Part shown: in pieces, positions 11,174 to 13,080 of the stretch
Position numbering within the stretch: position 1 is the stretch's first letter
Layout of the letters: each line of letters opens with the position of its first letter
Sequence record: OZ035763.1
Length of the DNA stretch: 40,327 nt
From: Teseptimavirus PDP351P2
Direction: 5' to 3' (one strand)
Position numbers and translations under genes: made by a program
Notes under the pieces: generated by a model
What the model was told of the DNA's origin: nothing
What the model saw: only the letters and a program-made list of their open reading frames with translations
Databases searched by the model: none

Positions 11174-12198
11174 ACATTAAGACCAGCCCATTTAAAGCCG
11201 TGTCCTTTGTTGGGTCCGCTGTGAAGAAGGCATTAGACAACGCTGGATACCTAATCGTCGATTGTAAATATGATGGTGTACGTGGGAACATCTGCGTAGA
11301 CAACACTGCTAACAGTTGCTGGCTCTCTCGTGTTTCTAAAACGATTCCGGCACTTGAGCATTTGAACGGTTTTGACGCTCGCTGGCAACGCCTCCTTCGT
11401 GATGACCGATGCTTCTACCCTGACGGCTTCATGCTCGATGGTGAACTGATGGTCAAAGGTGTAGACTTCAACACTGGCTCCGGCCTTCTGCGCACCAAGT
11501 GGCTAAACAAGAAGAACTTTGAGTTCGACGTTGGCGGTGTACCACCACTCAAGGGGTCCAAGGTTGAGTTCGCGTTGGACACCAAACGTCTGAGTGTACG
11601 ACTATACGCTATCCTCCCTCTGCACATCGTGGAGTCTGGGGAAGACTGTGATGTCATGACGTTGCTCATGCAGGAACACGTTAAGAACATGCTGCCTCTG
11701 CTACAGGAATACTTCCCTGAAATCGAATGGCAAGCGGCTGAATCTTACGAGGTCTACGATATGGTAGAACTACAGCAACTGTATGAGAAGAAGCGTGAAG
11801 AAGGCCATGAGGGTCTCATTGTGAAAGACCCGATGTGCATCTACAAGCGAGGCAAGAAGTCAGGCTGGTGGAAAATGAAGCCAGAGAATGAGGCTGATGG
11901 TATCATTCAGGGTCTGATATGGGGGACCGAAGGTCTTGCTAATGAGGGCAAAGTGATCGGCTTTGAGGTGCTTCTTGAGAGTGGTCGTGTAGTTAACGCC
12001 ACAAACATCTCTCGCGCCTTAATGGATGAGTTTACAGCTGCATGTGATACGGACACATACCACCTTGCTGGTATAAACCCGTACCAAGGCTGGGCCTGCC
12101 AGATTAGCTACATGGAGGAAACACCTGATGGCTCTCTGCGTCACCCATCGTTCGTAATGTTCCGTGGCACAGAGGACAACCCTCAAGAGAAAATGTAA
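11170..12198 (+). CDS. 1.3: ATP-dependent DNA ligase (T7 gp1.3 homolog)
   Basis: 342 aa; MNIKTSPFKAVSFVGSAVKKALDNAGYLIVDCKYDGVRGN (adenylation motif KYDG); C-terminus ...SFVMFRGTEDNPQEKM. Confidence 0.95.
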   Translation: MNIKTSPFKAVSFVGSAVKKALDNAGYLIVDCKYDGVRGNICVDNTANSCWLSRVSKTIPALEHLNGFDARWQRLLRDDRCFYPDGFMLDGELMVKGVDFNTGSGLLRTKWLNKKNFEFDVGGVPPLKGSKVEFALDTKRLSVRLYAILPLHIVESGEDCDVMTLLMQEHVKNMLPLLQEYFPEIEWQAAESYEVYDMVELQQLYEKKREEGHEGLIVKDPMCIYKRGKKSGWWKMKPENEADGIIQGLIWGTEGLANEGKVIGFEVLLESGRVVNATNISRALMDEFTAACDTDTYHLAGINPYQGWACQISYMEETPDGSLRHPSFVMFRGTEDNPQEKM

Positions 12199-12203
12199 CA
12201 ACA

Positions 12204-12231
12204 CTGGCTCACCTTCGGGTGGGCCTTTCTG
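12204..12231 (+). terminator. early terminator TE (for host RNAP)
   Basis: GGCTCACC-TTCG-GGTGGGCC stem-loop followed by TTTCT; matches recalled T7 TE. Confidence 0.8.
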
Positions 12232-12235
12232 CGTT

Positions 12236-12258
12236 TAATACGACTCACTAAAGGAGGT
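12236..12258 (+). promoter_or_regulatory. T7 RNAP promoter phi1.5
   Basis: TAATACGACTCACTAAAGGAGGT. Confidence 0.8.
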
Positions 12259-12265
12259 ACACATC

Positions 12266-12358
12266 ATGATGTACTTAATGCCATTACTCATTGTCATTAT
12301 AGGATGCCTTGCGCTTCACTATACTGATGATGACGATATGCCAGATGGTCACGCTTGA
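12266..12358 (+). CDS. 1.5: gp1.5 homolog, 30-aa hydrophobic/acidic peptide
   Basis: MMYLMPLLIVIIGCLALHYTDDDDMPDGHA read manually; matches recalled T7 gp1.5. Confidence 0.7.
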   Translation: MMYLMPLLIVIIGCLALHYTDDDDMPDGHA

Positions 12359-12381
12359 CGACACCACTAAGGAGATACCTT

Positions 12382-12498
12382 ATGATGTACTTAATGCCAC
12401 CACTGATGCTATTCTTGGTGTCATTACTCATTCTCATCCCTGTATATGCTGTACTACGTGATGATGACGATGATGACACACAAGATGGTCACGCTTAA
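12382..12498 (+). CDS. second, divergent tandem copy of gene 1.5, 38 aa
   Basis: MMYLMPPLMLFLVSLLILIPVYAVLRDDDDDDTQDGHA; shares MMYLMP start and DGHA end with the first copy; own SD GGAGATACC. Confidence 0.6.
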   Translation: MMYLMPPLMLFLVSLLILIPVYAVLRDDDDDDTQDGHA

Positions 12499-12518
12499 TA
12501 CGACTCACTAAAGGAGAC
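12496..12518 (+). promoter_or_regulatory. T7 RNAP promoter phi1.6
   Basis: TAATACGACTCACTAAAGGAGAC. Confidence 0.8.
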
Positions 12519-12523
12519 ACTAT

Positions 12524-12784
12524 ATGTTTCGACTTCATTACAACAAAAGCATTAAGAACTTCACGGTTCGCCGTGCTGACCGTTCAATCGTATGTGCGAG
12601 CGAGCGCCGAGCTAAGTTACCTCTTATTGGTAACACAGTTCCTCTGGCACCGAGCGTCCACATCATTATCACCCGTGGTGACTTTGAGAAAGCAATAGAC
12701 AAGAAACGTCCGGTTCTTAGTGTGGCAGTGACCCGCTTCCCGTTCGTCCGTCTGTTACTCAAACGTATCAAGGAGGTGTTCTGA
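12524..12784 (+). CDS. 1.6: gp1.6 homolog
   Basis: [29 protein letters not shown]..., matches recalled T7 gp1.6. Confidence 0.85.
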
Positions 12785-13069
12785 TGGGACTGTTAGACGG
12801 TGCAGCTTGGGAAAAAGAAAATCAGCCTTCCGCTGAATCAATCGAAGGTGTCACTAAGCCTTCCCATTACATGCTGTTCGACGACATTGAGGCTATCGAA
12901 GTGATTGCCCGTTCAATGACTCGTGAGCAGTTCAAAGGGTATTGCTTAGGGAACATCCTTAAGTACCGCCTACGTGCTGGTAAGAAGTCCGAACTGGCTT
13001 ACTTAGAGAAAGACATGGCGAAAGCTGGCTTCTACGGTGAACTATATGAGAAACATAAGGATAAGTGTT

Positions 13070-13080
<11 letters not shown>
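12784..13080 (+). CDS. 1.7: gp1.7 homolog, half-length (98 aa vs about 196 in T7)
   Basis: [13 protein letters not shown] start then directly QPSAESIEGVTKPSHYMLFDDIEAIEV...; corresponds to T7 gp1.7 N-terminal 12 aa plus C-terminal half. Confidence 0.8.

Follow-up and report, generated by a model that had tools for sequence, protein, structure and literature searches.

Probable tandem duplication of the gene 1.5 cassette and divergence of one copy in a T7-group phage

Are the two small open reading frames (ORFs) that stand side by side upstream of gene 1.6 in Teseptimavirus PDP351P2 (record OZ035763.1) unrelated genes or copies of one gene, and, if copies, how did the second arise and is it still a gene? 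A first-pass annotation, made from the letters of the window (the whole stretch of 40,327 nucleotides analysed here), had reported adjacent ORFs of 30 and 38 amino acids, which were found at exactly the positions that it gave, and had proposed that promoter and gene were duplicated together and then diverged. The locus reads, on the plus strand, phi1.5, copy 1, a promoter relic, copy 2, phi1.6 and gene 1.6 (Table 1). Whole-length homology of the copies, a chimeric junction, a dead relic between them and the situation in related phages support the proposal. The locus most probably reflects a tandem duplication of a cassette made of a class II T7 promoter, a ribosome-binding site and gene 1.5, with later decay of the promoter and divergence of copy 2, giving two putative membrane peptides. 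It is an ordinary, lineage-restricted gene duplication and no new kind of system, and provides a clean, small natural example of how new genes are made in T7-group genomes.

Table 1. Features of the two-copy gene 1.5 locus, in coordinates of the window.
Feature	Position	Strand	Sequence or size	Basis or remark
Early terminator TE of host RNA polymerase	12206..12236	+	hairpin GGCTCACC-TTCG-GGTGGGCC then TTTCTGCGTTT	
phi1.5, T7-RNA-polymerase promoter (-17 to +6)	12236..12258	+	TAATACGACTCACTAAAGGAGGT	identical over 23 bases to T7's annotated phi1.5
Copy 1, gene 1.5	12266..12358	+	30 aa, MMYLMPLLIVIIGCLALHYTDDDDMPDGHA	ORF list; tblastn; phrog_12128 match
Relic T7 promoter	12354..12375	+	CTTGACGACACCACTAAGGAGA (TTGACGACACCACTAAGGAGA = 12355-12375)	gapped alignment to phi1.6/phi1.5; PWM
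Copy 2 Shine-Dalgarno	12369..12374	+	AAGGAG, 7 nt before ATG	read from sequence
Copy 2, diverged gene 1.5 paralogue	12382..12498	+	38 aa, MMYLMPPLMLFLVSLLILIPVYAVLRDDDDDDTQDGHA	alignment to copy 1; custom HMM
Internal tandem duplicate of copy 2 codons 1-8	12406..12429	+	24 nt	repeats 12382-12405
phi1.6, T7-RNA-polymerase promoter	12496..12518	+	TAATACGACTCACTAAAGGAGAC	identical to T7's annotated phi1.6
Gene 1.6	12524..12784	+	86 aa	ORF list; near-identical to T7 gp1.6; downstream boundary of duplicated cassette

The flanks of the locus are those of T7. The hairpin and tail of TE are identical to the T7 stretch that holds the annotated TE (V01146, position 7588), and T3 has an annotated TE at the equivalent place; a simple terminator scan missed the site in the window because its T run is interrupted. 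Gene 1.4 is absent from this phage, so that TE directly adjoins phi1.5. This promoter is one of 16 promoter-like sites found on the plus strand of the window in a PWM scan, and its 3′ part doubles as the Shine-Dalgarno sequence of copy 1 (AGGAGGT, 7 nt before ATG). The same promoter had been noted on either side of the gene pair; indeed, the sites at 12236 and 12496 score like the genome's other promoters against the 23-bp consensus, but the upstream one continues GGAGGT and not GGAGA. Together, phi1.5 and phi1.6 form a 25-nt direct repeat (96% identical in a repeat search), and the first three bases of phi1.6 serve as the TAA stop codon of copy 2. Both copies lie between the two promoters with (A)AGGAG 7 nt before their ATG, as is expected by position for the gp1.5 family.

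Copy 1 is gene 1.5. Its product is 100% identical to gp1.5 of phage 13a (tblastn) and 87% identical to that of T7, finds 172 phage records with at least 80% of the query covered in tblastn, and matches phrog_12128 over the full length of the family (E = 1.2e-20, residues 1-30 on profile positions 1-29 of 29). It is a member of the family of T7 gp1.5, a class II peptide of 29-30 residues, and occupies the same position between phi1.5 and phi1.6. With a dN/dS of about 0.05-0.15 among its orthologues, gene 1.5 stands out as a real gene under selection (dN/dS about 0.1). T3 carries a positional orthologue (NP_523306, 25 residues, MWLILFAIVATLGLMVADDNIWPDC) that follows TE and phi1.5 and precedes gene 1.6; it likewise has a hydrophobic N terminus from residue 1 followed by DD..PD, but lacks MMYLMP, DGHA and the Cys of the lipobox discussed below.

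Copy 2 escapes protein family profiles. It has no match to phrog_12128 at E ≤ 1, and hence none over the full length of that family; its best PHROG matches are unrelated families of unknown function (for example, phrog_7843, E = 2.3e-5), and a Pfam search gave no meaningful match. A gp1.5 HMM built here scores copy 2 at 9-11 bits, with residues 9-38 spanning the entire profile and residues 1-7 matching a second time. Descent from gene 1.5 shows instead in the DNA. Once a single 24-nt gap is allowed, the coding sequences of copy 1 and copy 2 are identical at 68 of 93 nt (z = 9.5 relative to codon shuffles), and their global DNA alignment scores 99 versus 33 ± 7 for codon shuffles, of which none in 5,000 reached 99. 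The agreement extends beyond the identical ends of 18 nt and 14 nt, since the middle part taken without them still matches at 35 of 58 positions, a value that none of 20,000 shuffles equalled. BLASTP aligns the two peptides with 19/38 identities and one 8-residue gap, the first six and last four residues being common to both. This similarity is far beyond chance, and the two units are homologous over their whole length.

What had been described as a different hydrophobic core in copy 2 resolves into a 24-nt internal tandem duplication of codons 1-8, plus substitutions. The repeat search detects the internal repeat at a spacing of 24, the duplicated unit is identical to the start of copy 1 at 18 of 24 positions (reached by none of 200,000 shuffles), and the best single-gap alignments of the copies open the gap 16-18 nt into the ORF. 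In the duplicate, MMYLMPLL has become MLFLVSLL through conservative hydrophobic exchanges (M to L, Y to F, M to V and P to S). The difference in length between the copies is this one 8-codon duplication, a micro-duplication within the new copy that reshapes the peptide. Downstream of the insert, 12 of 22 residues are replaced and the invariant Cys14 is lost. Copy 2 resembles T7 gp1.5 in leader, position and the layout of a hydrophobic helix followed by an acidic tail; it differs by eight additional residues, the missing Cys14, and the presence of R26 and of a longer acidic run with six Asp, the last as the first-pass annotation had pointed out.

The segment between the copies overlaps copy 1 in its last codon and its stop codon, and it holds the Shine-Dalgarno sequence of copy 2, which matches that of gene 1.6 in motif and spacing. 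That it is a decayed copy of the flanking promoters, as first suggested from inspection, is borne out. In its best register it scores -16.2 bits on the promoter PWM versus 31-40 bits for the 14 training promoters, and 240 positions of the window score as high or higher, so that it no longer scores as a promoter. Its core resembles that of phi1.6 at about p = 0.005 (94-123 of 20,000 controls). In comparison with the T7 class II promoters phi1.5 and phi1.6, the relic keeps CGAC..CACTA..GGAGA and both flanking contexts, but has lost 2 nt from the AT-rich -17..-13 region, has A in place of T at -8 and, in gapped alignment to phi1.6/phi1.5, carries one insertion and one deletion. Could this segment still work, either as a weak T7-RNA-polymerase promoter or as a new sigma-70 promoter with TTGACG as its -35 element? 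ACGAC at -13..-9 does stand in register with the GGAGA start region; in that register, however, positions -17..-14, -8 and -6..-3 are all wrong, and the PWM score of -16 bits lies about 47-56 bits under those of real promoters. TTGACG fits the -35 consensus at five of six positions and a sigma-70 scan reports one 9-of-12 site (12358-12386), but 1.4 such sites are expected by chance, the -10 partner of TTGACG at 17-nt spacing is CCTTAT (3/6), and the transcript would begin at the ATG of copy 2 or beyond it, leaving out the Shine-Dalgarno sequence. The sigma-70 site was rejected as a chance-level match, and a working promoter of either kind is very improbable. Judged by the PWM and by the known contacts of T7 promoters, the middle promoter is very probably dead.

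The contexts of the relic point to its source. A chimera of the sequence upstream of phi1.6 and the sequence downstream of phi1.5 fits it best (29 versus 15-19 for either promoter context alone), as a junction left by unequal crossing-over of the 25-nt promoter repeats should look: direct repeats flank the unit, and the context of the downstream repeat is joined to that of the upstream one. The leader of copy 2, 13/14 identical to the phi1.5 leader of the N30 type, agrees with such a junction. Among the seven two-copy genomes described below, the relic is the most variable segment, and phi1.5 is unchanged in all seven.

A route to this arrangement can be proposed from its anatomy. Phages with one copy, T7 for instance, have near-identical promoters on both sides of gene 1.5, namely phi1.5 and phi1.6, spaced by about 117 bp. 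If phi1.6 of one genome recombined unequally with phi1.5 of a second genome, the product would be phi1.5, gene 1.5, a hybrid promoter, gene 1.5 and phi1.6. As the present sequence shows, the middle promoter then lost 2 nt in -17..-13 and acquired small indels, with its Shine-Dalgarno part kept, and copy 2 tandemly duplicated its first eight codons, diverged, lost Cys14 and lengthened its Asp run. Repeated promoter modules would thus act as recombination substrates, and the redundant promoter would be silenced with its ribosome-binding site retained. Masker and colleagues have reportedly studied how T7 deletes and duplicates sequence between short direct repeats; the present locus is alike in having a unit flanked by a 25-nt direct repeat and the chimeric junction contexts that are expected, but it is a natural, fixed and since diverged product and not a laboratory event. 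T3 has no promoter between genes 1.5 and 1.6, and the repeat substrate for such a duplication is therefore missing there.

The same recombination might instead have brought in, during a mixed infection, a gene 1.5 allele that had already diverged in another T7-group phage. The leader of copy 2 is nearest to the N30-type phi1.5 leader (13/14 identical versus 10-11/14 for the resident type), and the dS between the paralogues, about 0.9, is comparable to the deepest value between alleles (window versus N30, 1.24). The flanks of the locus are mosaic among these phages, with gene 1.4 or a homing endonuclease present or absent and with hybrid phi1.6 leaders, and two-copy genomes interleave with single-copy genomes on gene 1.6. 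The coding part of copy 2, however, stands at 0.71-0.83 to all alleles, N30 being no nearer than the rest, and a copy-2-type gene on its own occurs in no phage among 50,697 phage records, IMG/VR, JGI metagenomes and 1.84 billion protein representatives. We regard a foreign allele as unlikely; it would change only the source of the divergence and leave the architecture of a tandem duplication as it is.

The duplication is confirmed, but the arrangement is not unique to this phage. It recurs in five GenBank phages (Bas64, Bas65, Bas103, Bas104 and SYGE1), the four Bas phages being isolates of the BASEL collection, and in one Logan contig; no other instance was found in the 50,697 phage records, IMG/VR and the JGI metagenomes. 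Phages T7, 13a, N30, phiA1122 and others have a single gene 1.5. No related phage has two unrelated genes at this place, which would have spoken against a duplication: the T7 group has either one gene 1.5 or the same paralogue pair. Where GenBank records annotate the two ORFs, both are named 'hypothetical protein'; copy 2 bears this name in four of the five GenBank relatives and is a truncated ORF in SYGE1. Searches revealed no outside source for copy 2. An exhaustive phmmer search of the 1.84 billion protein representatives returned only the Logan copy of the same locus, a protein homologue search with the 47-residue TTG-extended ORF of copy 2 returned one protein, and tblastn of copy 2 against the phage collection gave no match, probably owing to masking of the peptide by the low-complexity filter. 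A scan of IMG/VR for the shared start motif gave 55 loci, mostly chance matches and none with two copies, and scans of IMG/VR and JGI metagenomes specific for copy 2 and for the relic added no instance; the 20 sequences that the relic pattern matched in metagenomes were all rejected as unrelated and lacking T7 promoters. Literature searches found no paper describing a duplication of gene 1.5. On gene 1.6, the only gene used for distances (gene 1.7 was left out because of large indels between genomes), the two-copy genomes do not form a clean clade, with T7, 64795_ec1 and phiA1122 interleaved. Recombination or repeated loss thus forms part of the history of the locus, and the sequences give no date for the duplication.

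Is copy 2 a gene or a remnant? It could be a duplicate on its way out that has no function of its own, is transcribed because of its position between phi1.5 and gene 1.6, and persists only because promoter decay and divergence removed the long repeats that would otherwise delete it. Several observations agree with this. The two-copy state was found, besides in the window, in six public sequences only and is absent from single-copy relatives that include T7, 13a, N30 and phiA1122, so that copy 2 is clearly dispensable. In SYGE1 a premature stop removes the last five residues, and in the Logan contig two residues of the acidic run are changed non-conservatively (Asp to Tyr and Asp to Gly); at least the tail of copy 2 therefore tolerates damage. 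Protein change between the paralogues is accelerated, their dN of 0.235 being 2.5-4 times that of any orthologue pair (0.10 or less), with a dS of 0.9 inside the orthologue range (up to 1.2). Against this, the pN/pS of copy 2 among seven related genomes is 0.24, equal to that of its bona fide neighbour gene 1.6 and compared with 0.12 for copy 1, on a base of about 20-25 synonymous sites. The frame of copy 2 is intact in six of the seven genomes and the single stop costs only five residues, codons 9-25, which encode the hydrophobic core, are nearly invariant, and all seven genomes have the same Shine-Dalgarno sequence despite the variable relic around it. A decaying duplicate is therefore rather improbable, and copy 2 has the substitution pattern of a maintained coding gene under purifying selection.

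Conservation at the level of nucleic acid was also considered, in the form of an RNA hairpin for stability or processing in which the stretch coding for Ile, Val and Leu pairs with that coding for Asp and the ORFs are incidental. Predicted folds reach -21.3 kcal/mol in copy 1 (z = -1.5) and -29.5 kcal/mol in copy 2 (z = -2.1), where both arms are longer, and the whole 348-nt RNA has z = -2.8. Gene 1.5 of T7 and N30, however, shows no excess stability (z = 0.07 and -0.32), the insertion in Bas104 and the substitutions in Logan change one arm without compensation, and the dN/dS of the orthologues given above indicates strong purifying selection at the protein level. Some pairing also comes free, as GAY (Asp) is the reverse complement of ATC and GTC (Ile and Val) codons. 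Neither conserved in T7 or N30 nor compensated, the hairpin was rejected as what is conserved here; its probability is minimal.

With copy 2 read as a maintained paralogue, the products of the locus can be compared. The hydrophobic or uncharged run that begins at residue 1 spans 17 residues in copy 1 and 25 in copy 2, the lengthening being due to the internal 8-codon duplicate. AlphaFold2 models place a helix at residues 4-22 of copy 1, with an unstructured tail, and at residues 5-26 of copy 2, with a disordered tail. The two different peptides would thus share a plan of N-terminal hydrophobic helix and short, unstructured, strongly acidic tail. Both ORFs are presumably carried on one RNA from phi1.5 and promoters further upstream, and both appear to be translated, each with a strong ribosome-binding site of its own, spaced by 7 nt. 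Our best guess, with insertion and topology deduced from composition, is that the copies encode co-transcribed small membrane peptides.

Whether copy 1 is in addition a lipoprotein is doubtful. The lipobox string of PROSITE PS51257, {DERK}(6)-[LIVMFWSTAG](2)-[LIVMFYSTAGCQ]-[AGS]-C, comes with side rules, namely a Lys or Arg among residues 1-7 and the Cys between positions 15 and 35; phage lipoproteins with a lipobox include Llp of phage T5 and Cor of phi80 and N15. The first-pass annotation was right that copy 1 has such a string and that copy 2, which contains no Cys anywhere, does not: by eye, residues 4-14 of copy 1 (LMPLLI-VI-I-G-C) fit, as does ...VIIG/C with [LVI][ASTVI][GAS]C, and Cys14 is invariant in 14/14 T7-type alleles. 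The canonical side rules, however, fail in all 14 alleles, in which MMYLMPL has no Lys or Arg and the Cys stands at position 14. Unlike in lipoprotein signal peptides, the n-region of copy 1 lacks Lys and Arg and the mature part would count only 17 residues (16 in T7); the Cys is also absent from T3 gp1.5.

As class II (early-middle) products inserted in the membrane, both peptides may act on host physiology. This would agree with the report that T7 gp1.5 is conditionally toxic: it is so in minimal medium, and stringent-like RNA polymerase alleles suppress its toxicity (PMC13483052). Copy 2 would then be sub- or neo-functionalised, its transmembrane segment being of full length. More tentatively, and with a low probability, copy 2 could be a neo-functionalised partner of gp1.5 and not a spare, the 8-codon duplication having turned a lipobox-like peptide into a true single-pass membrane peptide and the conserved ends, MMYLMP and the acidic D..HA tail, allowing the two peptides to act together, for example as a hetero-oligomer. 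If so, copy 2 would extend or tune the effect on host physiology that for T7 gp1.5 is genetically linked to the stringent response. The two copies offer a natural variant pair for following up that link between gp1.5 and stringent-response physiology (PMC13483052). In T7 evolved on an altered RNA polymerase, phi1.5 was the fastest-changing promoter and changed in four of four lines (PMC6171733).

The relic is not the only promoter-less copy of this leader module at the locus; the leader of T7 gene 1.4 is a second such case. The 33 nt before and into that gene can be aligned with the phi1.6 leader if one gap is allowed, and what this gap takes out is the promoter core; the parts AAGGAGACAC..ATGTTT are nearly identical (score reached by none of 5,000 shuffles). 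Unlike in the relic, the core is cleanly absent there and not decayed, and genes 1.4 and 1.6 of T7 themselves have only ATGTTT in common.

The window carries the genome of a T7-group phage of the genus Teseptimavirus, with 16 T7-type promoter sites on the + strand; the best matches to its first 25 kb are JeanTinguely/Bas64, Bas103 and Bas104 (~92% identity, 84-87% of the query). The table lists the features around gene 1.5, whose two copies lie between two T7-RNA-polymerase promoters, phi1.5 and phi1.6. Gene 1.4 (51 aa in T7 and Bas104), which in T7 lies between the early terminator TE of the host RNA polymerase and phi1.5, is missing, and the T tract of TE directly abuts phi1.5 (CTGCGTTTAATACG; 12198-12236). 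The same direct junction occurs in SYGE1, Bas65, phiA1122, N30 and the Logan contig.

Features of the gene 1.5 locus in the window
Feature	Position	Remark
DNA ligase gene (1.3)	end at 12198	
TE early terminator hairpin	12206-12236	hairpin and tail identical to the T7 stretch with annotated TE
phi1.5 promoter	12236-12258	
Copy 1 (gene 1.5)	12266-12358	30-aa ORF
Promoter-like remnant	12354-12375	
Copy 2	12382-12498	38-aa ORF
phi1.6 promoter	12496-12518	
Gene 1.6	12524-12784	
Gene 1.6 codons 9-13	12549-12563	GCATTAAGAACTTCA, 87% complementary to TGATGTACTTAATGC

The first-pass annotation described two ORFs of these lengths with a common MMYLMP start and DGHA end, as we find them, and read them as a promoter-plus-gene duplication followed by divergence. 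That reading is correct, being supported by homology of the copies and by a chimeric junction between them. Copy 1 has the same amino-acid sequence as gp1.5 of phage 13a (100% identity), shares 87% identity with T7 gp1.5, and matches phrog_12128 over its full length (E = 1.2e-20). The coding DNA of the two copies is identical at 68/93 positions with a single 24-nt gap, an alignment scoring 9.5 standard deviations over codon shuffles; with the identical ends excluded, the middle 58 nt still agree at 35 positions (0/20000 shuffles as high). The 24 extra nucleotides of copy 2 are a diverged tandem repeat of its first eight codons (MMYLMPLL to MLFLVSLL), the repeat unit agreeing with the start of copy 1 at 18/24 positions (0/200000 shuffles as high). 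A gp1.5 HMM built here from 14 alleles aligns residues 9-38 of copy 2 to the whole profile and residues 1-7 to the profile start again; hence 38 = 30 + 8 residues, and the peptides are gap-free downstream of the insert.

Between the copies, the string TTGACGACACCACTAAGGAGA (12355-12375), which had been taken for a degenerated promoter, is present, and gapped alignment shows it to be homologous to phi1.5 and phi1.6. Two nucleotides are lost from -17..-13, and one insertion and one compensating deletion follow further on; taken by itself, the core is similar to phi1.6 at about p = 0.005. To the left of this relic lies phi1.6 upstream context (GGTCACGCT); to its right lies a leader of the phi1.5 type (GGAGATACCTTATGATG), most similar to the N30 allele (13/14). 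A chimera of phi1.6 upstream and phi1.5 downstream sequence aligns to the relic with a score of 29; each promoter context on its own gives 15-19. Judged from the sequence, such a junction is what out-of-register recombination between the phi1.5 and phi1.6 repeats (25 nt, 96% identical) would be predicted to leave.

It is very improbable that the relic is still an active promoter. A weight matrix trained on 14 promoters of the window genome gives true promoters 31-40 bits and the best register of the relic -16 bits, a value equalled or exceeded at 240 other window positions; a sigma-70 scan of the relic revealed no convincing replacement promoter. In its best register the relic is wrong at -17..-14, -8 and -6..-3. 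Both -8 and the AT-rich upstream part are positions contacted in T7 promoter recognition. phi1.5 is invariant in the seven two-copy genomes, and in T7 evolved on an altered RNA polymerase it was the fastest-changing promoter, changed in 4/4 lines (PMC6171733). We read the latter as indicating that the live promoter matters, in which case a second one 116 bp downstream would be redundant.

The copy 2 ORF is intact in six of the seven genomes; in SYGE1, a CAA to TAA change removes five residues. Together with changes in the Logan copy, this stop could point to a functionless, decaying duplicate, but such a fate is fairly improbable given selection on copy 2 and its Shine-Dalgarno sequence, AAGGAG, which is invariant in all seven genomes, the remaining relic being variable. 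With few sites and related genomes behind every rate, mean pairwise pN/pS over the seven genomes is 0.12 in copy 1 and 0.24 in both copy 2 and gene 1.6; dN/dS among gene 1.5 orthologues across the genus is about 0.05-0.15, so that gene 1.5 itself is clearly coding; and the paralogues show a dS of ~0.9, inside the orthologue range (up to 1.2), with a dN of 0.235 versus <=0.10 in any orthologue pair, an excess at ordinary dS indicating that the copy 2 protein evolved 2.5-4x faster than any orthologue, still under constraint. That an RNA hairpin is what is conserved, the ORFs being incidental, is extremely unlikely, as neither T7 nor N30 conserves the hairpin. In Bas103 (locus L060, 612-704 and 728-844), Met2 is mutated independently in both copies, to ATA (Ile) in copy 1 and ACG (Thr) in copy 2, which points to the first ATG as the start and to Met2 as dispensable.

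Five GenBank phages (JeanTinguely/Bas64, JacobBurckhardt/Bas65, EmilieLinder/Bas103, AnnaIndermaur/Bas104 and vB_EcoP_SYGE1) and Logan assembly ERR9710127 share the two-copy locus, relic and internal duplication included; T7, 13a, N30, phiA1122, 64795_ec1, NC-A and others have a single gene 1.5. When 1.84 billion representative proteins were searched exhaustively with phmmer, the Logan peptide was the sole copy-2-like protein to turn up elsewhere, and scanning IMG/VR and JGI metagenomes for exact patterns yielded no relevant match for copy 2. Import of copy 2 as a divergent allele from another phage would account for the resemblance of the leader to N30 and for the high dS, but no donor was found, and we consider it unlikely. 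On gene 1.6 the two-copy genomes form no clean clade, so the locus has been moved by recombination, repeatedly lost, or both. Its flanks are mosaic, with gene 1.4 or a homing endonuclease variably present upstream and some hybrid phi1.6 leaders; the putative endonuclease ORF overlaps the ligase 3' end in Bas64 (L059, 130-600) and Bas65 (L061, 56-547) and is absent from the window. The 3' end of copy 2 in the window (12484-12495) is GATGGTCACGCT (DGHA), as in copy 1, and GATGACCAYGCY (DDHA) in the six other two-copy genomes, a difference that arose by gene conversion, with copy 1 or a single-copy phage as the source, or else marks an ancestral state kept in the window. Among two-copy genomes, only the window has CCA (Pro) at codon 7, too.

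Duplication and divergence are thus sharpened by the chimeric junction, the internal eight-codon duplication and the occurrence in six other sequences. The mechanism is ordinary and the gene family known, copy 2 being a diverged member. Annotated public versions of these ORFs are labelled 'hypothetical protein', including both copies in all four BASEL records; the SYGE1 record annotates only the truncated copy 2, leaving copy 1 unannotated. Our literature search found no paper on a gene 1.5 duplication.

The copy 1 peptide has an uncharged run of 17 residues from Met1, then HYTDDDDMPDGHA; that of copy 2 has a run of 25, then RDDDDDDTQDGHA. Single-sequence AlphaFold2 models (modest mean pLDDT, 74-77) show one helix each (4-22; 5-26) and an unstructured tail. 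T3 gp1.5 (MWLILFAIVATLGLMVADDNIWPDC) has the same layout and position. Copy 2 lacks Cys14 and with it the lipobox, as first noted. The IIGC proposed as lipobox-like in copy 1 does fit the lipobox string, but its n-region has no Lys/Arg and the Cys lies at position 14. This Cys is invariant in 14/14 T7-type alleles seen, unlike T3 gp1.5 and copy 2; lipoprotein processing is therefore no more than a possibility for copy 1 and is not family-wide. Toxicity of T7 gp1.5 in minimal medium is relieved by stringent-like RNA polymerase alleles, and two-hybrid assays against RelA, SpoT and RpoZ gave no consistent interaction (2026 study, PMC13483052). We propose that the phi1.5 transcript would carry both ORFs, each translated from its own ribosome-binding site; both peptides may insert into the inner membrane. 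Copy 2 would have been sub- or neo-functionalised and would have a transmembrane segment of full length.

The T7 gene 1.4 leader (TCTGCGTTTATAAGGAGACACTTTATGTTT; L002, 457-489) aligns to that of phi1.6 across a single gap, which takes out the promoter core (0/5000 shuffles as high), ATGTTT starts both gene 1.4 and gene 1.6, and the entire 1.4-1.6 region looks built of repeated leader modules. The 15 nt after the start-codon A of both copies (TGATGTACTTAATGC; 12267-12281, 12383-12397) are 87% complementary to codons 9-13 of gene 1.6; the copy 2 pairing appears in the predicted minimum-energy transcript fold, and the complementarity may be chance. Two T7-like IMG/VR contigs differ right after gene 1.5: 3300045988_000100 (L037) carries a partial promoter duplication (GCTTAATACTTCTAATACGACTCACTAAAGG), another small rearrangement within phi1.6, and 3300045988_001011 (L006) lacks phi1.6 (GCTTAAGGAGGCACTATGTGG...) and has a different gene next. 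The gene 1.7 homologue of the window (12784-13080) has only 98 aa, keeping residues 1-15 and 111-195 of T7 gp1.7 (196 aa) after an in-frame internal deletion of the middle; in Bas104 and Bas103 the protein is 179 aa long and carries the annotation nucleotide kinase.
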